Assembly: GCA_001724265.1 (NCBI GenBank)
Contig: MEDY01000005.1
Span: 124,001 to 188,000 of the forward strand
From: Rhizaria sp. SCN 62-66
Lineage: Eukaryota
Direction: 5' to 3'
DNA: 64,000 bases
Part shown: piece after piece, positions 14,304 through 44,440 of the stretch
Numbering within the stretch: position 1 is the stretch's first letter
How the letters are laid out: every line of letters starts with the position of its first letter
Notes under the pieces: generated by a model
Told to the model about the DNA's origin: nothing
Seen by the model: only the letters and a program-made list of their open reading frames with translations
Databases searched by the model: none
Translations under genes and position numbers: made by a program

Positions 14304-17300
14304 ATGCAGCCCTCGCAGCCCCAGCAGCCACAGGCGCAGTCGCCGCCGCGTTCGCCGTCGCAAGCGCAAGCGCAGTCGCAAGCGTTGCCACTGCCGCTGC
14401 CGCAGCCGCCCGCAGCCGCCGCCGTCACAGGCACGCCTCTGACTGCCACTGACTCCAGCTCTAGCGCTCGCTGCGCGAAGGACTCCGCCGCCGACGACGA
14501 CGGCATCACCGGCAGCAACATCACTGGCGCCGCTGACGACGATGAGAGTGAGCGCGTGAGCACTACGGCGGGCTCTATCTTTAGCCAGCACAGCGGCCGT
14601 GACCGTGACCGTGAGCACGATGACGGCGACGGCGACGGTGATGGTGGGTTTGACTACGAGAGCGTGCGGAGTGTGACCGTGAGCACCACGCTCTCGGACT
14701 CCGCGCACGCGCACTCGCTCTCGCTCTCGCAGTCGCTGTCGCGGACGGCATCGGTGACTGGCTCCGACGACTAGCAGGAGCCCGTTGACGACGACGATGA
14801 CGACAACGACGGCGACGGCGGTGATGATGATCTTGCGAGCGACACCTTCGCAAGCGATAACATTGCAAGCGAGAACAACAACAGCGAGGACGACGACGAG
14901 GGCGACGATGATGACGAGGGCGCCCACAGCCACTCGCTGAGCGACAGCGGCCGTGACCCCGGCTCCGCGGGCGGCAGCACAGGGCACCAACCCCAACCCC
15001 AGTCAAAGCCTGCTCACGACAACTCCAACAACAGCAGCAGTCGCAACACGGGTGCTAAGACGACGACGCTCGCGCGCGCTATGAACGCAGGCTCCGGCGC
15101 TGCTAGTTCCCACGCCGCGGCCCGCGCCCGCGCTGGCGCAATGGAGGACGGCGACGAAGACGGTGACGGCGACGGCGATGGCGATGACGACGCTGAAGAT
15201 GACGATGAAGTCAACGTCTCCCACCAAGATCACAGTCACGACCACGACGAGGACGACGACGGTCACAACGAAGACGACGAGGACGAAGACAACGACGACG
15301 AGTAGCACGGTCGAGACGCGGCCGCCGCCTCCGCGCCCGGCGCCACCGCTGCAGCTGGTCACGGTGCGCTCACAGGTACGCAGCATACCCAGCATGCCCA
15401 GACCAACGCCGGCGCCGGCGCCGATGCCAGCGGCGCTGACAGCGGCGGCAACGACGGCGCCGGCGACGGCAGCGCCGGCGACGGGAACGGAGACAGGAAC
15501 TTCTCGCGCGCGGTCAAGCTGTACCAGCTGAGCGAGGAGGGGCTCTGGGAGGACAGTGGGACGGGGCGCGCGCTGGTGGAGCAAGATCCACTGCCGTCGG
15601 TTGCCGCCGCGCTGCACGCGGTCGAGGCGCTCGCCGAGGACGCCGAGGCGCTGCTGCTGCGCTACGCTATCAGGGTCCACATCGTCAACTCCAGCAGCGC
15701 CGCCTCCAACGGCAACGGCAGCGGTGCCGCGGGTGTCGGCGCTCTCGGCGGAACACATGGGGGAACGCATGGTGGCGCCGACGGGGGCATGCCGCGGACG
15801 GCCCATGATAGCAGCGACGACGCCTGCTCCAGCGCCGCCGCCGCCACCGCCGCCGCCGCCGCAGCCGCCGCCCGCCAGCAACAACAGCAGCAGTTTCACC
15901 ACGGCTCTGCGGGCGCCGATGACGAGGACGAGGACGGCGATGATGCGTTCAACCTGTGCATCGTGCTTGAAGGGTGGGACCTGTGCCACCGCCAGGGCGC
16001 GACGATCATCACCTGGGTGTCGTCGTCGTCCAACTGTGACCTCGCGCTCTCCTTCCAGGTACGATGCTAAATCAAACAAAACATGATATATCTCGCCCAA
16101 TGTCTTGTGAATTTTACTAAAACGGGTATATTATCGTGTTCTTTGCATTTCTTGAATATTAAATATTGCTTTGAATTCCGCTCACCCTTGTGTATATCCA
16201 CCGCATTTTCTTTTGTAGGACGCCGAGTGCTGCGACGACCTGTGGACGCGGCTGACGGCGCTGCGCGAGCTGAAACTTGCGCTGGAGCCGTATCTGCCGT
16301 ACCGCGCGCTGAGCGAGGTGCCCCCGCTGACTGCGGCGACGGTCGGCGCCGTGGCCGTGCGCATGGAGCTGTTTCTGTCACCGCACAAGCGCGATGACCT
16401 ACTCACGCTGCTGCGCATGGGCCGCTGCATCGAGTTCATCACACCAAACAACTCGTACGCATACAGCGCTGCCGCCAACAACAACAACACCACCAACAAT
16501 AACAATGACGGTGATGGTGCTGTCAAAACTGAGACTGCGGCCAGTCCTACCAAGAGCACTGGGGCTGCGGCCGCGACCAGTGACAGTAAGCAGCCCCAGA
16601 CCGGCGACGCCAGCAGCGGCGGCGCGGCTGAGGCCGAGTCAGACTCCGTGTCGCTGCCGCCGCTGCCCTCGTCTCTGACCGACTCCGGCAGCACGAGCAC
16701 TGACAGCACTAGCGCGAGCTCGAGCTCGAGCTCTGGCCCAGGCTCAGGCTTCAACTCGCCTCTGAAGCGTGCCCGCGAAGACAGCAGCGCCAGCACAGAC
16801 AGTGCCAACACTGGCGCTAGCGCTGGCGCTGGCGCTGGCGCTGGCGCTGGTGCTGAGATGGCTGAGACCGAGGCTGAGTCTGAGACTGCGACCGAGGCCG
16901 CGACCGTGACCGTGACGGTCGCCAGCGAGTCTGGCTCCGGCTCTGGCTCTGAGCCCGCTGCCGCTGCCGGTGGCGCTGCTGGCAGTGCGGTCGTGAAGCG
17001 GCCTCGCCTTGCGTCGCTATCGCCCTCGAAGCCGCCCGCAACCGCCGCCAACACGGACTCCAAGTCCGACAGCGACGGTGACAGTAGCGGCAGCGACGAC
17101 GAGGACTCTCGCGTCACTGCCGACGCAGAGGCCGCCCCGGCTCACAGTCAGGAGCCCGAGGCCACCGAGGCTGACAATGATGCTGAAGCTGAGGCGGAGG
17201 CTGAGGCTGACCAAGAGCAGGAGCAGGAGCAGGACCACGAAGATCACGACGAGGACGAGGACGGCGATGGTGAGCACGACGACACGCAAGATCAGGAGCA

Positions 17301-20300
17301 GGAGGCTGAGCAGCAGTTCGAGGAGGGCCAGCTGCGCCGCGCGCCCGAGCTCGTGGTGACAGTTCTGCTCCTGGCGGTCGACGCCGACGCGAGCGGCGAC
17401 ACAGCCACATCGCAGTCGTGCTTCCGCATCGTGCGCGTGCTGCTGCAGTGCGCGGACCTCGCGCTGCTCGACCTGCTCACCAGCCCTGTCTTCACGCCCG
17501 CCGTGGCCACCGCACTCGAGCACGACCCCACGCTCGCGCTGCCCGCGTCCGTCCCCCGCACGCGCCACCGCAGGTTCCTCGCGCAGGCGCGCCTCAAGGA
17601 CGTCGCCGGGCTCGCTCGCGCAACCGCGCATGCCACCGCGGCCAACGCAGGGGCGGCTGGGACTGCTGGTGGGGCTGCGGGTGCACCCGCGAATACCGCT
17701 GGCTCTGGCGCGGGAGTGGTGCAGAAGGCGCACCAGAACTTCTTCGCGGCGTACTTGCGCGACGTGGTGCTGCTCCACTACGCGGAGGAGCACACGCTCA
17801 ACGTGATCCACTCGCTTGTATACAGCAACGAGGTCGCCATGATGACCACCATGCTGCAGGTACGTGTCATCACTAAAGCAAAACCACGACTAAAAACGAC
17901 GTTTTGGCGATGTCCTTGTGTTTGATTCCTCGAAAACATGAATCATTTATTTATATCTATTACAATCACTTTTCAATTGCTTATTCACATCTCAAAACTT
18001 ACTTGTGTCTTATTATTTTGTTCATCTCTTTTGTTGATTGTTTATCTCGCGCACAGTCGTCGACGTTCCTGCCGTCAGTCTTCGCGACGCTGAAGCGTCT
18101 GGCCCGGTTCGACCTCGCGCACAGCCGGACGCCCTCGACGACGGCGGGCTCGGTCGCAGTCCCGCTGGTCGAGGACCTGCTTGTGCTGGCCCCGCGCGCG
18201 TACCGCCAAGTCGTCGTCGGCACCGGCGGCGCCGCGCCGGGCGCCGTGCCGTTGGTTCCCACGCTGCAGTTCGGCTCCAGCACCGCGGTCATCGCCTCGG
18301 CCACCCACAGCACCGACTCGTCCGCCAGCACGAGCACCAGCACGTCCACCGCGAGCACACCGTCCAAGGACTCGCGCGACGCCAGCTCCCACGGCAGCGC
18401 CAGTTCGAACTTGAGCGCGAGCTCGAGCGTGAGCGTGAGCGGTGTGGCCGTGGGGACGCGCGGAAACGCGGTGAGCATGCTGCGCTACCTGGGCGCCACG
18501 CTCCAGGTCGAGGCAGAAGCAGAGGCCGAGGCGGCGGCGGAGGCCCAGGCGGCGCAGCAGCAGCAGGCGCACGATCAGGAGCAAGAGCAGGAGCAGGAGC
18601 AAGAGCAGGAGCGGGGTGAGAATGAGAGCGAAGGCGTCGCCGTCAAGACAGAGGTCAAGCTCGAGACTGACTTTGCCGCTGCTTCTGACAGCAACACCGT
18701 CACCAAGATGACTGATCTTGACTCGATCCTCATCAAAACCGAACAAAGCAGCAGCATCATGTCTACGACCGCTGACGCTAACGCAAACGCTCCCGCGACA
18801 GTGGCGAGTGCCGACCTCTCTGCCAGCTCCAGCGGTGTCGCTGACACTGCTGCCGCTGACGCTGCTGCCGCTGACACCGTTGCTGGTGCAGCTGCTGCAC
18901 CTGCGCCTGTGCCTGTGCCTGAAGCCGCCATCCCGGAATTCAAGCCGCACCTGCTAAGCCAGGCCGCCGAGCGCCGGCTGCTGTTCCAGTTCGTGCAGGA
19001 CCTATGCTCAATGGCCAAGAACCAGCAGCTGAAGCTGCGCGCGCAGTTCATCGACTGCCTGTTGTCGTCTGGCTTCCTACGCGCGCTCGAGACGGCGCTG
19101 CTGACGTCACCGCGCACGCAGCGCTGGCTCTGGGTGTGCGCCTGCTCGGTGCTGTCGATGCTGCTGGCGCACGCGCCGCTGCAGCTGCGGCGCCACCTCG
19201 CGGGCTCGCGCAGGGCGCGCGCAGAGGCGCGGCGCGCGCGGCGGGAGGCGGACCGCAGCGACAAAGAGGCCGCCGCGACGGCCGCGCGCAACCGGGCCCG
19301 CGCCGCCGAGGGCTCGCGCGCCGCCGCCGCCGTCTCGCTCGCCAAGGCAGAGGCCGATGCCAACAACAACAACAACAACACGAGCAGCATCAGCAGCGCT
19401 GTGAATGGGAACAGTGTGCTTGACGCTGTCGTGGTGGGCAGCAGCAGCGCGATCGCGTCGCTGCTTAGCGGCGGCATCACTGGCAGCGCTGGCGCTGGGC
19501 TCACTGGTACTGGCCTCACTGCGGGCACGGGGCTCGCTGTTGGCACCGGCCTGACTGCGCTCGCGAGCGCCCCCGGGCTCATCCCAGGCAGCCTCAGCGC
19601 CAGCGCCAGCGCCAGCGCCAGCGGGAGCAACCCCATTGCGGCGACGACGCCCGCGGTGCCGCTGTGCGCCGCCGTCAGCCCCAGCAAGAGCCTCTCCAGC
19701 GCCAGTGCCAGCGCCAGCGCCGGTGCGAGCAGCAGCACGCCTAATGGTGGCGCTGCGACTGCCAGTCTGGGCGCGAACGCTCCCAGCTCTGTTCCTAGCT
19801 CTGCGTCAGGCGCTGGCGCTGGCTCCGTGTTGAGTAATACTGATCTTAACAGCGCGGTTGGTTGGGCGCTCGCAGGCGGGCCCCCGCCGCTGGTCAAAGC
19901 CGCCAGCACTAACGCCAACAACGCCGCCGCCAACACGGCGACCACGACCGTGGGTGTCAAGAGCGCGGCCCTGCGTCGGCCGCGGTCGCTGCTCACGGTC
20001 ATCGTGTGCGCGCTCACCGAGACGCCCTGTCTGGCCCGCGCGCCGCGCAACTTGCCCGCGGCAGCCACGGTACCCGTGGGTTCCGCGAGTGCCTTAAGCA
20101 CCGCTGGGGCGGCGAGTGCCAGCTCTGGCGCTGCGAAGGCCAGCAAGGCGAGCGTGAGTGGCTGTGAGAGCGAGAGCGACGGCTTCGGCGACAGCGGCGG
20201 CGACAGCGACAGCGAGGACAGTACCTCAGACGACGACGAAGACGACGACGACAGCGACGGCGACGGCGACGGCGGCGGTGACAAGGACGACGATGGTGAT

Positions 20301-23300
20301 GACAGCGGTAACGTGAGCGTAGCCGGCAGCGACACCGAGACCGTCCCGGCCACCAACTCCTCCGACTCTGACCGGGATGACCGGGATGGGGACGGAGAGG
20401 ACTCGGACTCGGACAACAAGAGCCGCGCCGCCGCCGTCACGGCCAACAGCAGCAGCCTGCGTCTCCCGCGTCCCACCGCCAGTGCCGCAACCAAGAGCAC
20501 GAGCAAGAGCAATGGCAAGTCTCAGAAGTCTCGCTCTCCCTCGAAGAGCGCCCGCGGTGGCAAGCGCAGGCGTGCGCGGCGGCGGCGCGCGCTGGTGCCT
20601 GTGCCGGGCCCCGGGCTGGACTCCGGCGTGATGCTGCAGCTGGAGGAGCTGCTGATCCGACTGCTGGACCAGGACGCCGCTACCGCGGTTACGGCGGCCT
20701 CGGCGGCGGGCGGCAGAGGGGGCGGGGACGACTTCCTGTCCTTCTTTTTCACCGTCCAGATGCCCATCCTGGCAGACGCGCTCGGCCCCGCGCCCGCGCC
20801 CTACACCAGCGGCATCAGCAGCGGTTCCAGTGGCAAAAGCAGCAGCTCCAGCTCAAGTAGCAGTAGTCTGCTCTCTGCGGCGAGTGCCAGTGCCAGTGCT
20901 GACTCTCTGGCTGGCGCCGACTTCAGTGCCAGTTCGAGCATGACCTCCCTTGCTGTGACTACACAACAACAACAGCAGCAGCAGCAGCAGCAGCCTGAGC
21001 ACGAGCAGATCCGCCTCACGACGGGCTCTCTCCACGCGCTCGAGCTGCTGTCGTTCATCGTGCGCACGCACAACGGCCACTTTAACCTCTGCTACCGCCG
21101 CCTCCACATCTTCCCGCGCGTCGCGGCCCGCCTCCGCGCCGCGCTCGACACCGCGCTGCAGGGCGCGTCCCCGGCCGCCGTGACGATCCTGCGCGCCAGC
21201 CCGGCCTTCGCTCGCGGCCGCGCCCCGCCCGCCGCCGCCGCCGCCGACGCCGCCGCCGCGCTCGCGCTGCAGTCGCTGCCGACCGCGGCCGCCGCCGCCG
21301 CCGCGGGGACGCTGCCCGCCACGGCGCTGGCGACCGCGCTGACGACGCTGGCGCTGCCGGCGCTGTCGGCGCGGCTGCCGCCCGACGCGGCGGGGCTGTG
21401 CGCGGCGCTGCGCTTCTTGCGCGTGTGCGTGGGCAAGCTCGAAGTGACGTACTGCAACAGCATCGCCACCACGCGCGTGCTCGACACCGTCATGGCACTC
21501 TTCTCGCTCAACGGCGGCCGCTACAACCTGCTCAACTCGACCGTCGCGGGGCTGCTCACCGCCATCAGCGACGTCTCAGCGCCGCCGCTGCACCACCACC
21601 ACCACGCCTCTGCGGCCGCGGCCGCGGCGCACGGGCACTTCGGCGGCGGCTTCGGCGGCCACCTGGGCCCGCGACGCGGCGGCGCCGGCGCCGGCGGGCG
21701 GGGCGGCCTCGGGCTCGGCGGCTACCTGCCCTACTACCACCTCGGAGGCGGCCGCGGCGGCCGGCTCGGCGGCGTCGGCGCGCTTGGCATGGGCGGACTG
21801 CACCGGTCATTCGCGCACCTGGTCGCCGCCGAGACCGCGGCCCCGGCGCCTGTGGGCATCGCGCTCGCGAAGCAGCTCGTGCTCTCGCACCTGCACAGGC
21901 TCACGGCGCCCGCATTCGCCAAGTACGTCACGCTTTGATTTGAAACGCGTTTATCTCTTTGTTCTGAACACGCTTTGCAATTTATTTTTGATATCATATG
22001 TCATTGATGGGATCAAATCTATCTTTTTTTATTTTTCTTCGAAGTGCCTTTACTTATATGCTCATATCTATCTTATCTCTCGTTTTCTATTCTTGGCTCT
22101 ACGCTCCTCTCCTCTTGCTTTGCATCCCAGTCTGGCGACGACGCTCAAGGACCGCGTGGGGGCATACCACGCGCGCCGCCGCCTCGCCAACGGGCCCGGC
22201 GGCAGCAGCCACGCCGCGCGCTCCTCGATCCAGTACCCGCGCTCCGCCGCCGGAACCCATGGGGGCACGCATGGGTCCGCCACGGGCGCGCTGGCCCGCG
22301 TCGGCCTCGGCCTCAGCCTCGCTGGCGGTCCTGCCGCCAGCGGCACCGGCGGCGGCAGCGCCAGCGAGCAGTCGGTCCTAGCGGGGCTGCGGCAGCGCCA
22401 GGGCCAGGGCCTTGGCGGCCTCGGCGGCCTCGGTGGACTCGGCGGACTGGGTGGTCTGGGCGGACTGAGCGGGCTCGCTGACCTCAACCGTGGCAACCGC
22501 GGCGCTGGTGCCGGCACCGGCGCTGGCGCTGGACTTGGGTTGGGGCTGGGAGCGGGCAACAAGACCTGGCAGCAGCAGCAGCAGCAGCAGCAGCCGCAAC
22601 AGGGCGGTGTCCGCGGCCGCGGGCTGGCCGAGCTCGCCCGCCTCAGCACTGCCGGTGTCGGTGGCGTCGGCGGTGTCGGTGCGCTGAGCGGGCTGGGCGG
22701 GTTGTTGGGGTTCGGCAGCGGCGTCCTGGGCGTCGGTGCGAGCAACAGCAACAGCGGTCGCCGCCGCCGCCGCCGCCACGCGCGGGCCGGGGGACTGGGC
22801 GCGAGCACTGACGACCTCAACTGCGACGACAACGACGACGATGACGACGAGTTCGAGGATGACGACGACTTGAGCGTCAGTGACGGCGACGGCGACGATG
22901 AGACTAACCTCGACCACGACGACGATGACGACGATGTCGACGTCGGTGTTGATGAGAACGGCAACCGGATCCGAGCTGGCGACGTCGTCGCAGCGTTCTC
23001 GCACGACTTCGAGCACGACGACCTGGACAACAACAATGTCAACGACGACGCCGACGTCGACCACGAGGACGACGAGGACGACGACCAGCATGGCGCGGGC
23101 ATCGCGGGTAGCTACTACGGCGTGACTGGCATTCGCCACGCGCACCAGCTTCAGCAGCACCGGATGTCTGACAGTGACGACGACGGCAACGCCAGCGAAG
23201 GCCACGATTAGAGCAACGCCGCTCATGGTCTTACTCTCGGCCACGGTCATGGCCACGGCCACGGGACTGAGAGAGATGACGACGATGAACACGAGGCCCA

Positions 23301-23307
23301 ATTTTAA
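14304..23307 (+). CDS. PPP4R3: Protein phosphatase 4 regulatory subunit 3 (SMEK/PSY2/SMK-1 family), ~2812 aa with three in-frame TAG codons (exons 14304-16058, 16219-17859, 18057-21922, 22131-23307)
   Basis: EVH1-type N-domain AVKLYQLSEEGLWEDSGTG...HRQGATIITW...DLALSFQ|DAECCDDLW. SMK-1 region ALEHDP...HRRFL...KAHQNFFAAYLRDVVL. C-terminal CAALRFLRVCVG...RYNLLNSTV. Three GTACG...AG introns keep frame. TAGs at 14772, 15303 and 23209; first TAA at 23305. Confidence 0.88.
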
Positions 23308-23641
23308 AACAGCAACGTGTGTACTAGATAGCTTAAGGCTCTCGCCTAGTTGCCCACTGGATATCATAATCTCGTGTTCGCCAGCTTGCTTTGTGTTTGC
23401 GCTTGTCGGTAGTGGATACTGGCGATGACAAACACGGGTGCGCGCACGAACAGAAACAACAGTCACGTTGTTTCAGACTATTACTAATGGTTATTTAAAC
23501 TATTTCAAAACACAGTGAATGGAATTAATCAAACAATACACTTATTTATCATGTATTTTCGCATAGCCGTTAACAACAATCCAACCTGCGCTTCCGTTTG
23601 TTAGTTTGTTAGACTAGCATGTGCTGCAGAGCTGATTTGCC

Positions 23642-25098
23642 TCAATCAGCGTCCTCCGCGTCGTCGTGAGCCATGAGCTCGTCAAGCATCGCCTGCTCCT
23701 GCTCCTGCTCGAACTCCTCGTCGCCCGCAGCGCCCGCCGCGGCGCCCGGGCGCCCGCGCCCAGATCTAAAGCCAGAGGCAGAGGCAGCAGTGGGCTTAGC
23801 TACCGCGCTCGGCCGGGAGCCTCCCGGGCCCAGCGCGGGGTTCAACGAGCCACCGTTCGCGGCGGCAGCGGCAGTAACGGCGGCAGCGGTGGCAGCGGCG
23901 TTGGCGGGAGCAGGGGGGAGCTGGTTGTGGCTAAACTGATGGTACTGATGTTGCGTCTACAGCTGCCCACCCATTCCCGCTCCCGCCCCGGCTGAACCGG
24001 TCGGCCCAGGCGCCGCCCCCGGGCCAGGCGCTGCGGCCCCCGGTCCGCCGTATGCAAGCTCCTGCCCGCCAAACGCAAGCCCTGGCCCGTACGCAGGCCC
24101 CGCGCCGGTCACCGCCGCCGCGCCGTACGCGGGCGCGGTCGGCACCGCCTGCGTGTTCTGCGCCGCCGGCGAGTACGCGTGCAGCGGCGGGCGCCCGCGC
24201 ATGCGCACGCCCGCGCGCTCGCGGCGCTCGATGTTAGCGAGGTTTTCTGCCTGCGCGCGCGCCGTCTGCGCCGCCGCATCGACGCGCCGCTGCGTCTCGT
24301 ACGCCGCCTTGCGATCGGACGCGGCCGTCGCCACAGAGCCGATGAGCCCGCGTGTGCGCGTGCTGCCGCGGGTCCCCGCCGGCGGCGGCGCGAGCGGCGC
24401 GGGCACAGGCGCAGACACGTCTGCGTCAGCGGCAGCCGCGGTGGCGGCGGCGCGAGCGGCGGCGGCGACGGAGACGTGGTTCTTCCAGCGGCCCCTGCCG
24501 GGGCCCTTGGCGAGGCTGCCTGTCTGACCGGTGTGGCCCGAGGCCGCGACCCCGGCCCCGCCAGTGGTCGCGTTAGTTAAGCCGGGCTCAAGCTTCACGC
24601 GCGCCTCGGGCCGCGCCTGCACCCGCGAGAGCAAGCGCTGCTGCTGCTGCTGCAGCTGGTGCTGCTGCTGGTACTGCTGCTGCTGCTGGAGCTGCACGAG
24701 CTGCAGGTTCTGGTGCTGCTCGCTGCGGTACATGGGCGCGCGCTGTCGTTCGGCGCGGACCTGCGTCTCGGCGGCCCGCTGCGCGTTCATGCGGTCCATG
24801 CGGTCTAGTCGCTTGCGCCACTCTTGCCGCATCGCCGCCTCGCTGCGCTTGCCGCCGTAAGTGCGCACGACCCACTGCGGCAGCGGGTCGCGCTCGGTGT
24901 CGGTGCGCCGGCCGATGGGGCGAAAGCCCCCCGCAACGTCGTCGCCACCGACCCCGCCGACACCGACGTCGACGTCGCCGACGCCGTGGCCGTGGGCAGG
25001 GCCCGTTGCGGAGCCCAGGGCGGAGCCCAGAGCGGAGGCCATGATGGGCCCCATGGCGCTGACTGGGGTGGAAGACATGTAGCTGCTGCTGCTGCTGG

Positions 25099-25166
<68 letters not shown>

Positions 25167-27358
25167 AACCCGTGACCGTGACCGAGATAACCGTGGGCGT
25201 GACCGTACGCAGGGACGACCGGCCCGGCCATTTGCTGAGGCACCACAGTCCCCTGCGGCGGCATGCCAGCGGCGGCGGCGGCCGCAGCGGCGGCGGCGGC
25301 GGCCACGGCCGTTGCCACCGCAGTCGGATCGCTCGCTGGCACAGGCGCAGGCTCAGGCGCAGGCGCTGGTGAGGCTGCTGCTGAAGGTGAAGATGTGGCT
25401 GTGGACGCCCCCGCGATGTGCGCGGTCTGCGCGGCGGCAATAGCGGCGTTGTCGTTGCCGAGCTCGCGCAAGCGCACCACCTCGGCGATGGACGCCGCCA
25501 TGGCAACAGCATTCGGCGGCCGAGTCTGCGACTGCGAGTCCGAGCGCGAGCTCTCGACCTGCTCCGGCTTCTGCTGCTGCTGCGGCGGCGGCGGCTTCTG
25601 GGGGTAGTACGGGGCAGCGTCGCTGTTCAGACTGGAGCCCAGACTGGAGCCAGGAGCGGGCGGCGCCGGCGCGTCAGTCGGCGCGGCCACATGAACAGGC
25701 GCATGCACAGGCACAGACGCTGTCGCGGGCGCGGGCGCAGTCACGGGGCCGGCGGCGGCGGCGGCGACCGTGGCCTCTGCCCTGCGCGCGGCCTCGACCA
25801 CGACGGCGGCGACGCGGGCCGCCGCCCCGCCTGCGACCGCGGCCGCAGCGAGCGCCGCGCCGTGGTCGATCCCGGCGATGGTCTCGCGCGCCTCGGCCGC
25901 CACGCGCGCCGCCGACGTTGACGCGACGCTCGCGGCCGCCACAAAGGCCTTGGCGTGCAGCGCGGCCGCAGCCGCAGCCTCGCTCGCGGGGTCCACCGCG
26001 CGCGCGGGGACGGCGATGCCTGCAGTCGCAGCTGCCACCGTGGCCGTGGTCGCGGCGGCCGCGGCGGCCTTGGCCTAGTCCTCGGCGGCCGCGGCGGCGT
26101 CAGCGATGGCGGCGACGACGACGGCGGCGGCGTGCGACGCGACAGCCGCCGTCGTGGCCTCGTCATCGTCCTCGTCCTCGTCCTCGAGGTCCTCAGCAGC
26201 AGCGGCAGCGGCGCCGGCAGAGGACAAGGAAGTCACTGCGGATACGGCGGCGGAGGCGGCAGGCGCGGCCGAGAATGACGCGAGCGACGCGGCCGACTGG
26301 AACGCGCCCGCGTAGGTCGTCGCGGTTGTCGCGGCCTCGACCAACGACGCGACGTAGCGGGCCGCGATCGCAGTCGACTCGCTGTCCGGCGTGTACTCGA
26401 ACTCCTCCTCCAGAGGCTGAGGCTGCTGCTGCGCTAGTTGCTGCTCCAGAGGCTGAGACGGTTCAGGCTTCTCCTGTTGCTGAGGCAGGTTCTCCTCGTG
26501 ATGCTGCTCTTGCTCATAGTACTGCTCCTTGTCCTGATCCTGAGCCTTAGCCTGAGGCTGACCCTGGGGCTGAAGCTGAGGTTGAGGCTGAAGCTGTTCC
26601 TGCTGCACCTTGATCTGCTGCGCCAACTGGTCCTGCTGCAATTGCTGCTGTTGCTGCTGCTGCCAGTGCTGCTTCTGCAGCTGCGCCTGCTCCTGCTTGT
26701 GCTGCTGCTGGAGCTGCACCTGTTGCTGCACCTGTTGCTGTTGCTGCTGCTGGTGCTGCTTCTGCTTCTGCTGGAGCTGCTGGCGCGTGCGCTGTAACTG
26801 GAGCTGCAGCTGCATTTGCTGCAACTTGAGCAGCTGTTCTTGGAGCTCTTGCTCCTGCTGCAGCAGCGCCTCCTCGTCATCCGGCTCCTCCTGCTCCTGT
26901 CCCTGTTGAGGTTGCTGCGACTGCGCCCGCCACGGCTGAGGCAAGGCGCCGCCCATCGACGCGACGGCGGGGACTTTAGTCACCGGCAGTGGCATGCCAG
27001 CCGTCGCGAGAAATCCCATGCCCGAGCCCGCGCCCGCGCTGCCCATCGCGCTGCCCATCACGCCGCCCATCACGCCGCCCATCGCGCCCGCCAGAGCGGG
27101 GCCGGGCTGCGCCGCGGCGTCGCAAAAGGAGTTGGTGCTGCTGTAGCTGCTGTTGCTGGCGTCGCTGTGCATGCTCGCGTTGAGGTCGTCGTACGGCTCC
27201 AGCGGCGGCGGGCCGGCGTCCTCGCCTTCGTCGCCGCCGACGCGGTGGTTCGAGGTCACGCTCGACAGCGCGCAAGTGTCGACAGGCGCAGCGGCCGCGG
27301 AGGCCGCTGTCTCCGCAGCCGTTGCGCCGGCGCCAGGGGGCGCAGTAGTCGAGAGCAT
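23642..27358 (-). CDS. Uncharacterised Gln/Ala/Ser-rich low-complexity protein, ~1238 aa with two in-frame TAG codons
   Basis: ORF-track pieces 26075-27373, 23957-26038 and 23642-23845 are in one frame and separated only by TAG (26075-26077, 23957-23959). Uniform GC-rich coding texture until TGA 23642, followed by AT-rich sequence. Start codon uncertain. Confidence 0.72.
25083..25163. repeat. Interrupted (CTG)n/(AGC)n microsatellite encoding a poly-Ser tract on the minus strand
   Basis: Direct reading: about 27 trinucleotide units with one interruption. Confidence 0.9.
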
Positions 27359-29152: not shown

Positions 29153-30089
29153 TCAGTACTGACCCGACTTAATCATCTCGGCCTGGAACTGGGTGACGTC
29201 GCAGCTGCGCATGGGCTTGCGCTCCACGCGCTCGTGCGGCATCTGCGTCTGCCAGCCGTACTCCTGAACAAGCGAACAGAACAAAAGCGAAGATATATCA
29301 ATATTATGAAGGTTTTGTTAAATAAAAATAGTATTTTGGAGCAATTCAATAGAAAAATCATATAGTGTAGTCAGTAATAGAAAAGGCGGCTTGAAAATAA
29401 AGCTTAAAATCAAATATCAACATATTCGAAAGATCTCTTTCGTAATTTGCACACACACAGTGGCATTTCATGCTTGACGTACTTGGCTGGTGGTGACTGG
29501 GGTGCGGTACTTCTCGTGGGGGCCAAAGCGCACGGTGGTGTTCTTGTCCTTAAGCGCGGTCATGGCGCCGTGCGAGGTGAACTCGGTCGCTGCGGCGGGC
29601 TCGATCTTGGCCATGGCCTCGCGCACCTCCTCCGCCAGCGCGCTGAACTGCTCGGCGTTGACGTACTTGGTCTCGGAGCGGAAGCCAGAGCCCGCGAGCG
29701 GGGGCAGCGCGGCGCCGCGCAGCTCAACGAGGCGGAGGAACTCGCGCACCTCGATCTCCGGCGGCTCGCGGCCGTAGGTCTGGATCAAGAGGGGGCGAAT
29801 GTCGTCGCCACAGAGCAGGCCGTCTTTGCGGTGGCGCTGCGAGAAGGCCGCGAATGCCGCCGCAAGCTGCGCGGGGGATAGGTCGGAGATGTTCAGCGTC
29901 GTGCGCAGGTGCGGGCTCATCGTGTACTCGGGGCCTAAGAGCGATCATAGGACAAAGACGGCAGAGAGCGACAGAGAGAGAGAGTTAGGAGTGAGCTTGG
30001 AAGTTCGAGAGCAGAGTCAATTGAAGCGTCGAGCATTGTTCTGGTTGGTATAATGACGGACCAAGGGAGGTAAGACCAAAGAAGTTCAT
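29153..30089 (-). CDS. TEX49/SPMIP11-like ciliary microtubule-inner-protein candidate with a central EF-hand-like region (196 aa; exons 30089-30062, 29934-29483, 29263-29153)
   Basis: Spliced protein MNFFGLTSLG|PEYTMSPH...GPHEKYRTPVTTSQ|EYGWQ...KPMRSCDVTQFQAEMI. The N-terminal FFGLxxLG and the PxxxYRxPxTxxQxYGW motif resemble the TEX49 family as I recall it. Donors GTCCGT and GTACGT. Stop TGA. Confidence 0.65.
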
Positions 30090-32323: not shown

Positions 32324-33512
32324 ATGACTTCTCTCGTCGCATCAATCGGCCGCACGTGGGCGCGCTACAACGAGCTCTGCATTACACGTCCCCTTACCAC
32401 CAAGGGTCTCACCGGTGGCTTTCTCTTTAGCACCGGAGACCTCATTGCGCAGAAGCTCGACGGTACTCTCGCAAGGTACGGCCTTTCTGCTCTGCTCCCT
32501 CCCAAGCAAGAATAATATATTCAGATCGGCATTGGAGCACGATATTACTTTGCTCTGCTCTCTTTTCTATAGGCGCCGTGTGTTTTTATTCTCCTAACCT
32601 CTTCGTGACCTTCCAAAACTTCCCCAAATTGCCCGCTCTGCTCCTCTCACCCCTCTCGCTCTCGCTATGCCTCCTATGCCTCCCTTGCTTGCTCCTCCCA
32701 GCCCCTCCGGCTACGACTATCGCCGCACGCTCAAAGCTTTTATGTGGAACGCGGTGATCTACACGCCGCTGGGCCACCACTGGTACTGCACCGTGCTCCC
32801 GCGCGTGTTCGCGCGCGCGGCCAACGGCGGCACGGGCACACTGGCCACCGCCGGCAAAGTCGCGCTGGACCAGACCGTGTTCGGCCCGCTTGTAATTGCC
32901 GGCTACATGACCTACTCCACCGTCACGCGCGGCGGCGACTGGGCCGCCGTCAAGGCGCGCTTCAACGAGGCCTACACTGACATTCTCGTCGCCAACTGGA
33001 TGGTCTGGCCCGCGCTGCAGATGATCAACCTCAAGTTCGTGCCGCTGCAGCTGCAGATCCTGGTCATGAACACCGCCGTCGTCGGCTGGAGCACCTTCCT
33101 CGCGCTTTCCGTCAGCAAGTCCGCCGTCCCCGTCGACGGCGCCGCGGCCAAGCCCGACGCCAAGGCTCTGAACGCCAACGCGATCAGCACCGGTGGCGAC
33201 AGCGTCACTCAGAACGTCTCGGTGAGCGCCGATACCGGCGCAGCCGCGGAAAACGACCTGGCGCCGTCGACGATGAGCGTGAGCGTGGGCGGCAGAGCGG
33301 TGGCGCTGCACCAGCACACCGACTTCGCGCCGGTTCCGCGCACGCAGTTCGAGAAGAGCATGCTGCTCGAGGCCGCCGCCGGCGTTCCTGCGGGCGCAAA
33401 GGCGCTCATCAACATCAACAGTGCGCACGGACACGCGCACGCGGGCAGTGGCGCGCACGGGCACGCGAGAGAGTTCGCCATTGTCGGCACCGACAAGATC
33501 AAGAGCAAGTGA
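32324..33512 (+). CDS. Mpv17/PMP22 family membrane protein (320 aa; exons 32324-32475, 32702-33512)
   Basis: RPLTTKGLT...GDLIAQ, YDYRRT, HHWY, KVALDQTVFGP, NWMVWPALQMINLKFVPLQLQILVMN...W...L. GTACGG...CAG intron. Stop TGA. Confidence 0.93.
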
Positions 33513-34137
33513 GTGCGTGATAAAAGGGTCGGGTTGAGTTATAACGAGCTCAACTTGAAGAGTGAGATGGCTTCTGATCTGAAATTGTGACAACACGGGT
33601 GGCTTGCAATATCGCTTATATAGCTCAGTCGTGCATTATTTAGATCTCGGGCCTGTATTTTAATCATATTTAGACCATTTCTTTTATCATAGTGTCTTTA
33701 CTTAGCGTACTTTGGCGCAGCCAGCCAGCTATGGCGGCGGCTTGCCGCCGGTGATGCATCGGCCAAAGGGAAGTATACATACAACATTTAAAAAAAAAAA
33801 AAAAAATCGCAACTTCATAACTTGGAGGTCTCTATAATTATGAATACACTTCTATAACTGACTACCTTGACACTTCTCAATGATCAGAAGTTTGCGACGA
33901 CTGGTGATTTTTTGCGAACCGTCTCTGAGCGGACAACAGCGACCATCGGCGAGAATCGAGAGCAAGCGCTCTGTCTGCTGCGGGGAATGGTCTTGTTTGT
34001 GTGCTTATGTTCGTCAATATCAAAATTAAGTGGACGGCGGGAGAAAATGTATCTTATATTTATTAAATTCTATTTGCTTATTTGCCCGCTTGCCTTTCTT
34101 ACTTCGTACCACGTGTTTACCGCAGACCGTTCCTTGC

Positions 34138-37100
34138 ATGGGCCGCCCGCAAGGCAAGTCGGGTTCTTCCTCTGGCAAGAGCAAGACCTCGGCCAAAGTC
34201 AGGAACAAGAACGCCAACAAGGCGAACCGGCACAAGTACACCCAGGCGAAGCAGGATCGTCGCAATGCTGAAGCGCGCGAAAACGTGCTGAGCACGGCGA
34301 TGAACGCCGAGTACGGCTACAGCGTCAACCTCAACGCCAACAGTAAGCACGCGAAGCGCATGCTCGCGCGGCAGCAGCGCAGGGCCGCGGCGGCCAAGGC
34401 GGACCGGCGCGCGGACGAGCGCAATGCGCCGGTGCGCCCTGAGGACGTGGGCGCCGTGCTGTCTGGCAAGACGCGCGCCACAGCCGTGTCCACGGTCGAC
34501 CCCAAGACGGGCAAGCTCGTCACCGCCGCCGCCGCCGTCATGACCGACGCTGACGCCGACGACGGGTCTGCGCACCGCGACAGCGGCCGCGGCAAGGGGA
34601 AGAAGACAGGCGCGCTGGCTGAGGCGCAGGAGATGCTGCGCAAGCAGGCCGAGCTTGAGCGCCGGCTCGCGATGAACGACGACGACGTCGACCTCTCCGA
34701 CTCGGCCTCCAACTCCGCCGACTCCGACTCGCAGTCCGGCTCCGATGACGACGACGACGAGGAGGAGGAGGAAGAGGACGGGGCCAGCAAGGCCGCGGCC
34801 CGCCGCCGCGCTCTGCTGGGCCCGTCTGCGTCTGACCTGGCGAGCTTCGAGGAGCGCGACAAGGCCAAGGCCGCCGCGGCCGCGGCCGAGCTGGCGAAGC
34901 AGAAGCAGCAGCAGCCAAAGAAGGGCAAGATGATCACGCCGCAGATGGCGGCGATGCTCAAGGCGCAGGGCCGCGACGCGCACCAGGAGGCCCGCGAGCG
35001 CGCCGAGAAGCAGGCCGCGGACAAGATCACGCGCGCCGCAAAGCACGCCGAGCTCCAGCGCAAGCGCGAGGAGACACGCAGGGAGGCGCAGAAGCGCCGC
35101 GACCGCCTCGCGGGGCTCATTGACAGCGACGACGAGGGCGGCAACGGCGATGACGACGATGACGAGGAGGACGACGAGGAAGAGGCGCTCAAGCGGTACG
35201 CAGACTACTTCTCGCGGCAGAAGGACCTCGAGGGCGCGCCGATGCTGGAGCTGGTGAAGCAGTACAAGCACCAGAAGGTGCTCGCGGCGGGCGAAGCGCG
35301 CCGCGAGGGTCGCGAGCCCGCGCCCGACTCGGACGCCAGCGACAACGACAGTGGCAGCGACAACAGTGAGGAGGACTACGATGAGGACGGCGAGGAAGGC
35401 AGTGAGATCGAGCTCGAGAGCAACAGCGACGACGACGGCGGCGACGACGACGGCACCAGTGTGTTCGGCGACCTGTCCTCTCCCGCCGCGGCCGCAGCTG
35501 CCGCCGCTGCTGCCGCCGCCCGCTCTGGCAGCAGCTCCAGTCTCAGCGCGGACGCGCTTTCGGGCCCTCTGAAGCGTGCGCCGAGCGGGACCAAGGCGAG
35601 TAAGCACGAGGACGAGGAGGTCGAGTCGCGGCTGTACGCGGTGCAGCGCCAGCGCGCGGCCGATGCCGCCGCCGCCGCGGCTGCCGCGACGACGGCCGCG
35701 CTGGGCGCGCGCAAACTCATGGTGCGGCGCGCCGACGGCACTTGGGTAGAGAAGGCCGACGAGCGGCACGTGGCCGACGCGCTTGCCCAGTCCGCGCCCG
35801 GTGGCGCCGCGCGGCCGGACCTGAGCGCGTACAAACGCGCGAGCGAGGAGGAGCGCGCGAAGCTGAGCCGGCAGATGAAGCGCGAGCACGAGCTGACGCA
35901 GCTGCGGAAGCGCATCGACGCGGGCGAGGACGTCGTCGGCAGCGATGACGAGGATGGGCTCATGCACTCGCGGCTGCGCGACCAGCTCGAGGAGCTCGAG
36001 GAGGCGACTCAGGAGAATGAGCACGTGACTGACGCGCTGGCCAAGGCGCGCGCGCTTGTCTCCGACGCCAAGCGCTCCAGCGGCAGCAAGGACGCCAGCA
36101 AGGACGCTGGCAAGGACAGTGGCAAGAAGGGCGGCAAGAGCAAGCGTCGCCGCGCCGGGTTCGAGGACGACGAGGCCGAGGCGGCGGCGATGTTCGCGGA
36201 CGACGACAGCGAGGCTGAGTACGACCCTGAGCGCGCCAATCCCGACGCTAACCTTGACGCCTCCGACAGCAACGACAGCGACGACGACGACGACGAAGAG
36301 GCCACCCGCGAAGAGGTTGCCCGCGCCATGGCGCTGCGCCGCTTCTCGGCCCGCACCGACGGCACCGACGGCGGCGCAGGCGGGCTCGACGCGGCGTCGC
36401 TGGCCATGATCGAGGCCGGCCGCCGCGCGGGCATCCCCGCTGAGGTCGTGCGCGCCGCCGCGGCCGAGCTGGCCGAGAAGCGTCTCGCAGCCAAGCTCAA
36501 GGCCGCGCGTATTGCGCGCCTCCGTCAGGTACGCAAACAAAGATATCGCATTGTAATGTGCTTTTTACTATGATATTTGATATATTCATTTACCGCATTA
36601 CTTATTTATTTTTACATTCTAATTTTATCACATATCACTCACATATCATTCTTCTATATTCTTTTTTTGTGCTTTTTAGGTTCAACTCGTTCTGGCGGAG
36701 CTGTGCGAGGAGGTTCTCTCGAACCCCGAAAAGTACCTGGCTGCGGGCCACGGCGACGCGCTGCTGGACCTGTGCCGCGACTCGGACCCGGCGGCGCAGC
36801 AGCTGGCGATGACGTCGCTGACGCAGGTGCTCATCGACGTGATCCCCGGCTACCGCATCAAGCTGCCGACGAAGCAGCAGCTGGCGCAGGAGCAGAAGCT
36901 TGGCCACCGCATCTCGCGCGACGTGCAGAAGAACCGCGCGTTCGAGAAGTCGCTGGTGACAACGTACGGCAAGCTCGTCTCGCTGCTGCGCGTGCGCACG
37001 CGCCGCGCCATGACGGGCGTGCACGCGCGCAGCCTCGAGCGCCAACGCGCGACGGCGCTCGCTAAGGGCAAGAGCACGGCGCACATCAAGGACGATGGCG

Positions 37101-40069: not shown

Positions 40070-40936
40070 AATTGTCGCCGTCGCTGTTTTGGTTAATCTC
40101 CCTTGATACGTAATAACTCGGAGCTATACTTGCCAGAATAACTCTGCACACATGAGCGCACTGTGGCCACTTGTTTCTTTAGTACACAAATCAAACCACT
40201 TTTATTAACACAAATTCGAATAACAATACAATTAACACTATATGTAGTAAGCTCAACAGCGTATTTATCTTTGAACGTGCCACCAATTTGGGACGGCCTA
40301 ACTTCAAAAAACGTACCCACCCTCTCTCCTCGAACTCCGCCAAGGTATCTTGCAGAATACACGCAGAGTGTTGTGTAATGATCTCACATGTTCTATGTTT
40401 GTTAGAATATAACTGTATGTTTTGTACTTGATCCTTTTTCTTCTGATATCTCACCATCCTGTTATTCCTGTTCTATTTCTTTCCTCCGCTCCCGCAGGTT
40501 CGCACACCCGTTCTCGACTTTTCTCGTTCTCTTGTTCACTGATTGAAGCCATAGTCGAAAAATATATTGCGCTCATGCTCCGCTTTGCTCGTATTATGAC
40601 ATCTCACTTGCTTGCGCCGCACATTCTTGCATCCACTCGAACTATCTTGAGTAGTAGGAAAGTTTCTGGGCTCTCTGTCTGCCCTTGAGACCACTACTCT
40701 CCACTTCCTCCACTCTTGGCAGCGGCATTTCGCGCATTCTGGACGCCCGCTCTTCCAGTAAAAGCTCGAATCTCGGTCGCAGTCGCCGCAATCTCAACCT
40801 TAACGACAACACAATTCTAAGCGTCAATCTCTCTTCTGCCTTGGCCTCTGACTCTAATAGCTGCTGGAGCAAGAGTAAAACAGCAGCAACAACAAGCCAC
40901 TTCCCATCTTTGCCTCTGCTGTTGCACTCTTTATCC

Positions 40937-43900
40937 ATGCGCCCTACTGCGTCGCCTACCCGCCTGCTTGGTCAGAACGTTGCGCCTGTTGGCACTCATG
41001 TGCGTGCCTCCAGTACAGCAACTACGTCAGGGTCCGTCCCTCGTGTGCCTCATGAAACTTTTTTCGCGGCCAATCTTGAGTCTACAAATGCGCCTCCGCC
41101 GTCGATCCTTTCTGACGCCTTTGTCAAGAACTTCTGGAAAGACTCAGAGTCCCTCTCTGCCTTCATCACGGCGCACCGATCACGCGAAGACGACATCATT
41201 GCCGCTCTTTTGCAGCGTCCGCTGACCATGAGCGACAGCGACGCCATCAGCAGGCTACACGAGACAACCCCCTTGCGTGATATCGAGATCCGCACTGGAC
41301 TGTTGTGCCCTCCAGCACACGGCCCTCTGCCGCTTGCCGCCGCTATTATGTGCAATTTACCACGGCTAGTTGGTGCTTTGGTCCGCGCCGGCGCGTCCCC
41401 TCACGCGTACTCGTGCGACGGCAACGCGCTGCATCACGCTGCCGCGCGCAACAACGTCGCTTGCGCCAAGGAAATCTTCTCCAGCACACCGCGTTCCGAA
41501 TGGGCAAAGTTACTTAACGCGGGTCTACGCACGGATACCATTAGCGATATGCGCAATAACTTTGAGCATACTTCCCCGTATCTTGCATTGGACCGTCACA
41601 TGATCCTCGCGCGGCCGCTTGAGGTTGCGCTTGACGCGGGCCACCTCGAGATAACACAGTTTCTGCTCAGCGACGAGATTATGTACTATAACAGCGATGA
41701 TGATGCCGCTGGAGAAGTTCCTTCGATGAGCACTGCGTGCCGCGAGCACACTGTGACGGGTGTCTGTGATGTTTCACAACAAAAATTATTCGATACTTTT
41801 GCGCCTCAGAGGAACTATTTGGGCACATTTCCTGGTCCTGATACTGTCGAAATAGCTCGGCTTGCGTTCAGTAATGCTAACAAGGCCGTAACTACAGCAA
41901 AGAGTTCCGCAGATGCCGCAGCAGCCGCTCTAGTTGCTGCACGCAAAGCTAACCTGGATGTTGATGCAGCCATTGCACGCGCAGCAGCCGCAGCTGATAA
42001 CGCATACATGGCAAAAAAAGAAGCAAAGAAATGTGGCGATTTGTTTGTTGCCGCCAACAATAAGGCTTGTAATCGTGGTAAATCGCTAAACTACCGTTGG
42101 TCGTCGAAATGGGAGGGTGATGCCGACTTAATACGATACAATAATGAGATGCAGCAATGGCAACAGCAACAGCAGCGACATGAATCTTCCAGAAATCTGG
42201 ACAGCGACAGTAATGCAGATACGCTGCTGCAGCGACCGCATCCGTACAAGCTACGGCAATGGCGTATGTTATGGTGGCAGGCCGAGTCAGGAACAGAGTT
42301 TGACGCTAAAAGGTTCAGGTTCATTGCTAACCCAGTTCACGCTGCTGCCTCTGGTGGTAGTAAGGCATGCTTTGAAGCTTTGTTGTTGACACGCGCCCGG
42401 CTTGTGTCCGAAAATATCACGACAGTCAAGCAGGCTAAAGGTGTATTCGACGAAAAACAATTTTGCGACCCAGGGATCACCCTTTCGTTCGAGCTTGAGC
42501 GTGGGTATCTCCGCTGTGCGCTATTTGGACGAAATCCTGCGTTTGCCTACGATCTCCTTGTTTACAAGAATTATAACTTAGCTTGCTTTTACAGTCTATC
42601 ACCACTTCTCAAAAACACTGATTTTCAAGATCCTGAAATGGATTACGCTGAGTGCGATGAGTATGCGGAGCTCGCTCCCGAAGATTGGTGTCCTAAGGTC
42701 TTCGTGTTTGAGAAGAAACTTTGCGACTACTATCTTCAGTGCTCACGTTTCGGCCTCCGCAATGGCAAGTGGAATGGACAAGGGCTGCCGGATACCATTG
42801 CGTTTTAGAACTATATTGACTGTACCCAAAGGAAACATCCCAGGCGGATTGTAACTCGTGTAAAAACCTCAATAGTTGCATATCAGGCTATCTCCATGCT
42901 GCTGCAGTTGTCGCCCACGAACTCATCTATCTATAGTGACAGGCCGGTCAAGTTGTTCAGTCTTACACTTGGCGCGCGGAGGCCAGCCACGCTACCGGGC
43001 ACACGCGGCGAGCGTGATAACGAGGAGCACTTATGGGCTGTAATGAGTCAGTTCTGTGGCGAGAAACCTGACGGAGAAAAATTGGAGCAGAATATCGACG
43101 CAATTGTGCAACGCAGCAAAAAATGGGATACTGACATTGACACATGGAATGACAGCCCTGTCAGTCGGGGAAGTAGAAAGAACAACAAGAACATCACCTT
43201 AGCTTCCTAGGACTCTCGGATTAACGCTCATCTTGGCTTGCTGCCAAAAAACGATGCCGCTTTGCTTGCTTGTTGGCTCGCTGATTCGCTGACAGTAAAT
43301 GCCCATAATAGCATCTCTGAACGCGTAGAGTACATGCTTGCCATGGCGTGTCGCCAACGTGTTGGCGGCGCGCAACCCTCTGTCTCAGAGAGGTATCTTT
43401 GCGCAAAGAACAGCAACGCTCTGCTGTTTCCTGACATTGTCGCACTTACGTTGCTAATGTTGGATCTTGCCTCTCTTACTATTACTGACTTCAAGGCGCG
43501 CTTTAAGACTTGTGGCAATGACGATTCACCGGACTTTGCCCACAATGCAAACTCTGGTCATACTTCTGACACCACTATTGCGTCTCCGATGTTAATCAGC
43601 GCTAACACAAGCGGATTCCTGCGCACGCTTACGCTCTTTGGAAACAAAGTTGCTTCGCCCGACAAATCACAACTTGACTTGACCAACATTTGTAACAGCC
43701 CTTCAGATACCGCATCAGAGCGGCTGCGCGTCATCCGCGACAACATTTCTTTGGCGCTCATGAACACTGATAATCAGCAACTTGACTTTTACCGGCGATA
43801 CTCCAGTGCCGTGCACCGCTTAGACGTGACATCAGCAAATCTTGCAAGGGATCATTCGTACAGTGGCGCGACATTTCTGCGGGGTGTTATGAAAAGCGAT

Positions 43901-44305
43901 TTTAAGTACGGCGCTCTTACATTAGATGTTGAGATGATGAAAGCTTTTGTCTCCACTTTTCCGCCAAAACATATGATTGCGCTTGTGAACACTCTCAAGC
44001 CGTCACTTAATGATGACTTTGAACTCAAAAATGATGACACGGCCTTGAGCCAAATCAGCAATAATAGTGGCTGTGACAACGCAACTTCTGGTGATGACAT
44101 TGAGAGTGGTCAAGAGACAGGCAGTGATAATGACTATGTCCCTACAAATTCAACGCTTCCAGGCTACGACGGTTTACTAAAAATCGAAGCTGATCATGAT
44201 GATGAAAGCGACCATGAGTGCCATTATTGCGTCAACAACAGCTCTTGGCTTGATATGACCGTGGGCAGCACCAACAGCATTGCAGAGTTTCTTACGCCTT
44301 ATATC

Positions 44306-44394
<89 letters not shown>

Positions 44395-44440
44395 CGGCTC
44401 AGATCTCTCAACGCAGCATCCGAGACAATGCCGGTACTGA
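40937..44440 (+). CDS. Ankyrin-repeat-containing protein, intronless, ~1167 aa with two in-frame TAG codons; possible mitochondrial presequence
   Basis: ORF-track pieces 40685-42808, 42896-43210 and 43238-44440 share one frame and are separated only by TAG (42806, 43208). Ankyrin-like repeats LPLAAAIMCNLPRLVGALVRAGASP, GNALHHAAARNNVACAKEI, RPLEVALDAGHLEITQFLL, NPVHAAASGGSKACFEALL. First in-frame ATG 40937 gives an R/S/T-rich, acid-free N-terminus. Confidence 0.75.
44306..44395 (+). repeat. Perfect (AAC)30 microsatellite encoding poly-Asn
   Basis: Direct reading of 90 nt. Confidence 0.97.

Follow-up and report, generated by a model that had tools for sequence, protein, structure and literature searches.

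The 64,000-nucleotide stretch of contig MEDY01000005.1 analysed here (positions 124,001 to 188,000; hereafter the window) carries in-frame TAG codons in three of its genes. The best explanation of these codons is that UAG is a sense codon and that UGA and UAA are terminators in a GC-rich, intron-bearing eukaryote of bioreactor and wastewater metagenomes. We assign this reading a probability of roughly 0.65. The window is eukaryotic nuclear DNA, with coding sequence of 65-75% GC and introns and spacers of 30-50% GC. Genuine coding frames are marked by a GC content of 0.8-0.9 at third codon positions (GC3), ~0.7 at first positions (GC1) and ~0.5 at second positions (GC2). The window holds about 15 genes, and codons were tallied in 10 gene models comprising 13,286 codons in total.

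In-frame TAG codons in three genes

A preliminary description of the window had listed seven in-frame TAGs in three genes. Translations and sequence contexts place all seven at the positions and in the frames given there: 14772, 15303 and 23209 in a PP4R3/SMEK gene, 26077 and 23959 in an Ala/Gln-rich low-complexity gene on the minus strand, and 42806 and 43208 in an orphan gene with weak ankyrin repeats. The six bases that follow are CAGGAG (14772), CACGGT (15303), AGCAAC (23209), GCCAAG (26077), ACGCAA (23959), AACTAT (42806) and GACTCT (43208). The next codons are accordingly CAG, CAC, AGC, GCC, ACG, AAC and GAC, and the next bases are C, C, A, G, A, A and G, as previously described. Programmed UAG read-through of the tobacco mosaic virus type uses the motif UAG-CARYYA. 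None of the seven TAGs is followed by a sequence that fits this motif, and the seven share no hexanucleotide.

The PP4R3 gene was modelled as four exons with 2813 codons. The only stops in this model are TAG at codons 157, 334 and 2781 and the terminal TAA; TAA and TGA are absent from the interior of the spliced model. Removal of intron 21923-22130 brings the open reading frame (ORF) at 22-23 kb into frame with PP4R3 as its last exon. An EVH1 domain starts at codon 402, 67 codons past TAG 15303; its match to PDB chains 6r8i and 4wsf begins at residue 5-6 of these chains (E = 0.006). Pfam PP4R3 matches further along the gene back this assignment; Pfam searches with exon 1 and the last exon returned no family. 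In-frame Met codons occur only at codons 1, 260 and 280. These lie upstream of TAG 15303 (codon 334) and EVH1 lies downstream of it, so no AUG-initiated product would contain EVH1 unless the TAG is read. On the predicted gene structure, TAG 15303 must be read for the EVH1 domain of PP4R3 to be made from any in-frame AUG.

Coding beyond TAG

A codon-usage model was trained on 8062 codons from TAG-free genes only and used to score the 60 codons after each stop in six frames. The in-frame score was positive and ranked first among the six frames after TAGs 14772 (+0.89), 15303 (+0.43), 26077 (+0.52) and 23959 (+0.31). Scores were negative, from -0.06 to -0.83, after all 14 TGA and TAA controls and after TAG 11782, which lies within an intron. 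An open stretch of 705 codons with a GC3 of 0.86 follows TAG 26077 in the same frame, and one of 104 codons follows TAG 23959. GC content is 0.71 across these 104 codons and drops to 0.35 only past TGA 23644. Given that the boundary in GC content falls at TGA 23644 and not at TAG 23959, the gene was taken to end at the TGA. A Pfam search with the minus-strand protein found no family.

At the orphan gene, the frame is open over 716, 133 and 409 codons in DNA of ~50% GC, the last two stretches following the TAGs. A random frame at this composition is expected to meet a stop about every 21 codons. Of the seven TAGs, four are supported by the codon model and two by the length of the open frame, and one (23209) is ambiguous.

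An unbiased scan considered all stops that close a top-ranked, stop-free, coding-like run of 50 codons (n = 27; 7 TAG, 14 TGA and 6 TAA). Same-frame coding continued after three of the seven TAGs, none of the 14 TGAs and none of the six TAAs (Fisher exact test on the counts, 35/2925 = 0.012). The p values from Mann-Whitney tests were 0.0006 (open-run length) and 0.013 (downstream score). The remaining four of the seven scanned TAGs are 23209, the intronic 11782 and two in antisense frames. Continuation of coding past TAG is more frequent than chance.

The same DNA is present in metagenomes of bioreactors, wastewater and activated sludge from several studies and years. Run X3, of another study and another year, has a contig that spans 42328-43799, including TAGs 42806 and 43208, and is free of differences. 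A contig from run X8 covers 23898-24179, also with no differences, and includes TAG 23959. No variant letters were reported at any of the four TAGs (23959, 26077, 42806 and 43208) within the 20-kb stretch that was compared with contigs of other runs. Among the contigs listed for runs X7, X5, X8 and X3, none bridges TAG 26077. For the poly(A) run X7, represented by assembled contigs only, none of those listed bridges a TAG or an intron joint, and depth over the orphan gene is 0-0.82, which speaks neither for nor against expression, splicing or editing. The segment 24400-26700 consists of GC-rich poly-Ala, poly-Ser and poly-Gln repeats where contigs from each of the four runs give many partial matches, loose ends and false joints, and read-based checks are unreliable there.

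Termination at TGA and TAA

The statement in the preliminary description that UAA and UGA still act as stops is supported by homology and by the scan. The Mago nashi gene ends in TAA. Residues 8-53 of its 57-residue C-terminal translation align to residues 98-143 of the 144-residue human chain, and the TAA lies four residues beyond the position matching residue 143. Homology likewise confirms the TGA that ends the gene for gamma-glutamyl phosphate reductase (ProA/GPR), and coding continued after none of the 20 TGAs and TAAs in the scan. Fifteen gene ends were modelled, a small sample of which homology verifies two. Eight are TGA, seven are TAA and none is TAG if TAG 23209 is read; otherwise TAG accounts for one of the 15. 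The absence of in-frame TAA and TGA from some 15,000 codons had also been put forward. It is true that none is internal, but the tally is 13,286 codons and the absence is largely a product of construction, as TAA and TGA delimit the ORFs.

The most similar DNA fetched, contig L001, differs in its stops. Its NOC3 is 37% identical to that of the window, and the contig has 52.6% GC and long intron-free ORFs. Three of its five modelled ORFs end in TAG, encoding a SET/MYND protein, an acyl-CoA-dehydrogenase-like protein and a 3003-residue WD-repeat protein, and reading through these TAGs lengthens the ORFs by only 12-45 codons. The organism that carries L001 therefore appears, from its ORFs, to use TAG as a stop within the standard stop set. 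Given these TAG-ending ORFs, the freeing of TAG would be lineage-specific. Synteny of L001 with the window through the WD-repeat gene beside NOC3 was considered and rejected, as the match is at the level of WD repeats only (E = 5e-4).

Introns

Thirteen introns were found, 12 by a scan and one (17860-18056) by direct reading. They are 132-278 nt long and have 25-42% GC inside exons of ~70% GC. The donor is GTACG in 12 of the 13 and GTATG in the remaining one, and acceptors are YAG. The uniform GTACG introns could serve as a signature for finding more contigs of the organism. Homology verifies the ProA intron, the removal of which gives an unbroken alignment with eight homologues. The in-frame TAG 11782 lies inside this intron and is spliced out without being translated. 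None of the seven TAGs falls within any of the 13 introns, and in the TAG-bearing exons of the GC-rich genes GC content is at least 47-52% in every 60-nt window. The earlier statement that no intron-like segment surrounds the TAGs is thus borne out, all 13 introns being AT-rich.

Evidence that weighs against a sense UAG

Several observations count against the reassignment of UAG. None of the seven aligns with a conserved residue of a homologue; five are in low-complexity segments and two are in the orphan gene. Since no TAG falls at a conserved residue, the encoded amino acid cannot be inferred by alignment. TAGs occur in only three of the 10 tallied gene models, and support from independent assemblies is limited to three of the seven (42806, 43208 and 23959). 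The sole tRNA in the window is Arg-TCG, and the gene for the release factor eRF1 lies outside the window.

Individual sites are also open to doubt. At TAG 23209 the coding score is +0.87 upstream and +0.13 downstream (rank 2 of six), and only 31 sense codons separate it from TAA 23305. His, Gly and Asp abound in the tail that follows, as in the sequence before it, yet GC3 in the tail is only 0.56. TAG 23209 is ambiguous and may be a true terminator. The orphan gene has a GC3 of 0.53, as against 0.8-0.9 in its neighbours, and carries a long Asn run near the C-terminus. It occupies a 4.4-kb island of low GC (40100-44500, ~48-51% GC) between NOC3 and a WD-repeat gene. The scores downstream of its TAGs, -0.33 and -0.17, indicate a poor fit to host codon usage. 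In a search of 1.84 billion representative proteins it matched only itself, apart from matches at the level of ankyrin repeats and low complexity. The orphan gene could be a foreign, decaying or recently acquired insertion, and its two TAGs are the weakest of the seven. An AlphaFold2 single-sequence model of its protein, with TAG translated as Q, had a mean pLDDT of 35.7 and was uninformative.

The preliminary description had drawn an argument from the fact that all seven in-frame stops are TAG. The pattern is real, but codon usage favours TAG and the argument is weaker than was claimed. Single-step nonsense changes yield TAG in 73-75% of cases in the GC-rich genes, where CAG, GAG, AAG, TCG and TAC are the preferred codons, and in 41-42% in the low-GC orphan gene. 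At equal-rate shares the chance that seven of seven are TAG is 0.73^5 x 0.41^2, or ~0.04, about once in 25. TAG is also rare, the GC-rich genes having five in 12,118 codons. Judged by the TTG/CTG ratio of 60/506, TAG as a neutral Gln codon would be expected ~52 times alongside 437 CAG, and five were observed. The core of the preliminary description, that UAG is a sense codon, nevertheless remains the best explanation of the window, qualified by the lack of any TAG at a conserved residue, by the possible terminator at 23209 and by the weakened argument from TAG alone.

Alternative explanations

UAG could have a dual or leaky role, being read through efficiently inside genes by a near-cognate or suppressor tRNA and terminating translation at certain positions, for example close to the 3' end; this would be akin to the context-dependent codes but restricted to UAG. 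Such a role would account for the fall in coding score from +0.87 to +0.13 at TAG 23209, with a TAA 31 codons on, for the roughly ten-fold rarity of TAG relative to a neutral synonymous codon, and for the confinement of all TAGs to disordered or orphan sequence, where partial read-through does least harm. However, two TAGs precede every functional domain of PP4R3, and hardly any of this protein would be made if read-through were inefficient. The TAGs have no common motif downstream, and no homology-verified gene end uses TAG. We therefore regard a dual role as unlikely. It is also conceivable that the TAGs are removed from the mRNA, either as part of unrecognised GC-rich introns that preserve the frame or by RNA editing such as U-to-C conversion. 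One in-frame TAG (11782) is truly intronic, and no RNA contig lies over the TAG sites among those listed. Yet every one of the 13 recognisable introns has 25-42% GC and a GTACG or GTATG donor, and AT-rich segments are absent from the TAG-bearing exons. GTA[ACT]G motifs are few in these exons and none can be excised in frame; the candidate intron 42661-42808, which has a GTATG donor and ends at the TAG, was rejected because its 148 nt would break the frame. The codon signal, moreover, runs straight through the TAG sites. Removal from the mRNA is thus quite improbable.

True premature stops, present in pseudogenes, nonsense alleles or genes with truncated products, would leave the downstream frames open if the mutations were recent. 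TAG is the likeliest nonsense product in the GC-rich genes (73-75%), the TAGs are clustered in three of the 10 tallied gene models, and the orphan gene is foreign in composition and without homologues. Against this, the three genes together have 5,220 codons, and seven nonsense changes would have accumulated in them with no frameshift, TAA or TGA. One of these genes encodes a conserved regulator, PP4R3, and apart from the TAGs its four-exon frame is flawless. Contigs of other studies and years are identical to the window at three of the sites, and none of the genes in the window has TAG as a clear terminator. Given these findings, there is little likelihood that the TAGs are disabling mutations. 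Errors of sequencing or assembly in GC-rich repetitive sequence have next to no probability. Five sites do lie in low-complexity DNA that is prone to cross-mapping, and loose ends and false joints occur at 24-27 kb; however, the X3 and X8 contigs show no differences, no variant letters were reported at the four compared TAGs, and seven errors would not all give TAG.

A possible early stage of UAG reassignment

If UAG is a sense codon, a tRNA with a CUA anticodon would be expected to read UAG and not UAA, and an eRF1 with weakened recognition of UAG would accompany it. The logic of the CUA anticodon, by which UAG can be reassigned alone, is set out in the available part of PMC11687900. For the amino acid we would guess Glu or Gln. 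In the GC-rich genes, four of five TAGs stand directly after GAC, GAT or GAG in acidic runs, and GAG is one step from TAG, contexts that would suit Glu. Gln would suit TAG 23959, which is embedded in a Gln/His-rich run.

The rarity of TAG and its confinement to disordered or orphan sequence suggest that the reassignment is young or inefficiently decoded. One possibility, which we put at odds well short of even, is an early stage of UAG reassignment in a TGA-preferring, GC-rich lineage. According to this proposal, UAG would have lost its role as a terminator and would be re-entering genes, possibly as Glu, at about one-tenth of the neutral expectation; as part of the same joint proposal, re-entry would be restricted to disordered or newly acquired sequence. 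Such a lineage would be a snapshot of the codon-capture intermediate that theory predicts and that is no longer visible in established variant codes. The parts of the literature available for comparison describe no code in which UAG alone has become Glu and UAA still terminates. A practical consequence concerns gene callers that use the standard code, which truncate the proteins of the organism. The orphan gene, for example, is stored in the public protein collection as fragments of 623 and 104 residues, each ending at a TAG.

Gene content of the window and placement of the organism

Table 1. Positions of gene models, introns and terminators in the window and of TAG-ending ORFs in contig L001.
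Feature	Coordinates	Strand	Remarks
PP4R3 exon 1	14304..16058	+	acidic low-complexity N-terminal extension, then EVH1; TAGs 14772, 15303
PP4R3 exon 2	16219..17859	+	Pfam PP4R3 match, profile positions 117-161; GTACG...YAG introns on both sides
PP4R3 exon 3	18057..21922	+	Pfam PP4R3 match, profile positions 405-471; donor CAA/GTACGT at 21923
PP4R3 last exon	22131..23307	+	Gly-/Asp-rich tail; TAG 23209, TAA 23305
Ala/Gln-rich low-complexity gene	23642..27358	-	1239 codons; TAGs 26077-26075, 23959-23957; end TGA 23644-23642
Orphan gene, weak ankyrin repeats	40937-44440	+	1167 residues; TAGs 42806, 43208; TGA end at 44438
ProA/GPR stand-alone gene	11403-13075	-	clade of environmental sequences (P0021-P0025); closest P0021, 71% identity
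TAA terminator of Mago nashi	9571..9573	+	homology
TGA terminator of ProA/GPR	11400..11402	-	spliced C-terminus ends within 4 residues of 8 homologues
Intron	9233-9459		
Intron (ProA)	11557-11792	-	donor CAG/GTACGA, acceptor CCCAG, 37% GC
Intron (PP4R3)	16059-16218	+	
Intron (PP4R3)	17860-18056	+	read directly
Intron (PP4R3)	21923-22130	+	CAA/GTACGT...CCCAG
Introns	29205-29482; 36529-36679		
Introns	52054-52229; 53731-53888; 55615-55796		
Introns	61467-61699; 61867-62059		
tRNA-Arg (anticodon TCG)	59579-59655	-	sole RNA gene found in the window; low-GC stretch
TAG-ending ORFs of L001	814-3231, 3373-4962, 12915-21923	all -	positions in L001

Genes identified by Pfam encode a protein with Exo_endo_phos and Mut7-C domains, Mago nashi, PP4R3/SMEK, NOC3, a member of the importin-beta family, GPR180/TMEM145 and Mpv17 (Table 1 lists the features discussed here). 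The ProA/GPR gene has no Pfam match and was identified through its homologues. The first of these genes is the minus-strand ORF 2-8389, which is uninterrupted over at least 2796 codons and runs off the edge of the window. Its endonuclease/exonuclease/phosphatase and Mut7-C RNase domains are split by very long Ala/Ser-rich low-complexity inserts, an unusual architecture. Minus-strand ORFs at 22-23.5 kb were considered as an antisense gene and rejected, as they translate to poly-Val/Leu, the antisense of Asp-rich sequence.

Searches of genome and viral contig collections gave no match, and a search of metagenome contigs gave three relatives but no contig of the organism itself. Protein searches with NOC3 and importin returned four and two proteins, respectively, and no informative names. 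The named matches of ProA are green algae, oomycetes and ochrophytes at 47-53% identity. A tree of this single marker was built from 119 sequences, one of 120 having been dropped for a short match, and was rooted at the midpoint. In this tree the window falls within a well-supported clade of nine environmental sequences, beside green-algal stand-alone GPRs under midpoint rooting. As far as these sequences go, the tree gives no taxonomic placement of the organism. Because the clade is made up of environmental sequences alone, public metagenomes contain an unsampled eukaryotic lineage of several members, and the 71% identity of P0021 shows that there are nearer relatives than the named matches. 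The term flagellate, used in the preliminary description, is unsupported, the one marker tree placing the organism only in that environmental clade.

Comparison with known codes

Few nuclear genomes have UAG alone reassigned while UAA still terminates; the sources, as far as available, describe two such cases outside the ciliates, Iotanema and the rhizarian exLh, and several lineages within them. The list of precedents in the preliminary description (Gln in Iotanema, Leu in one rhizarian, and some ciliates) was incomplete; the accessible portion of PMC11687900 adds three reassignments in phyllopharyngean ciliates. A search of a limited literature collection found no report of such a code in a eukaryote from wastewater or activated sludge or in a stramenopile.

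The fornicate Iotanema spirale has a comparable set of stops. UAG encodes Gln and UAA and UGA terminate, with 204 in-frame UAGs in 126 genes in the part of the source available (PMC5304391). Like Iotanema, the organism described here is a non-ciliate protist in which UAG would be sense and UAA and UGA would terminate, and UAG is never a bona fide terminator in Iotanema as described in that portion of the source (PMC5304391). The same portion reports many Iotanema UAGs at hyperconserved Gln positions and UAA as the main stop, at 104 of 119 termini (PMC5304391). Unlike Iotanema, the window is GC-rich, has seven UAGs in ~13,300 codons with none at a conserved position, and has eight TGA against seven TAA ends. 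In exLh, a rhizarian of the Sainouroidea, UAG encodes Leu; for 71 genes, the part of PMC5304391 at hand gives 384 in-frame UAGs, with hyperconserved Leu positions accounting for 82 of 86. Highly expressed genes of exLh contain UAG less often, suggesting less efficient decoding, according to the same part of that source (PMC5304391). The window resembles exLh in the reassignment of UAG only, but no TAG context in it points to Leu.

Ciliates provide further cases. In phyllopharyngean ciliates UAG was reassigned once to Leu and twice to Gln, with tRNA-Sup(CUA) genes, as given in the consulted sections of PMC11687900. As in the window, UAG is uncoupled from UAA in these ciliates, and the cases came from metagenome-derived eukaryotic genomes in what is available of the report (PMC11687900). 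They have UAA as the preferred stop and widespread UAG, so far as the available text describes them, whereas in the window exons are of 70% GC and spliceosomal introns begin with the donor GTACG or GTATG. Oligohymenophorea sp. PL0344 uses UAA for Lys, UAG for Glu and UGA as sole stop (PMC10553269, available in part). UAG thus differs in meaning from UAA in PL0344 as it would here, where Glu is a candidate; unlike in PL0344, where UAA is sense in the available account, TAA is a homology-confirmed terminator in the window. Condylostoma, karyorelicts and Blastocrithidia have codes in which the choice between stop and sense depends on context and two or three stops are sense, according to the parts of the reports at hand (PMC4967479, 10.1101/2022.04.12.488043, PMC12153298). 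The window would share with them a dual role of one stop if TAG 23209 terminates, but differs in that coding continued after none of the 14 TGAs and six TAAs.

The known UAG codes rest, in the sources as available, on hundreds of UAGs at conserved positions, and in ciliates also on suppressor tRNA genes, compared with seven TAGs here. If UAG is indeed a sense codon in this organism, it would be a further independent case in which recognition of UAG and UAA has been split, in a TGA-preferring genome of 70% GC with sparse TAG. It may also offer a possible view of early codon capture.

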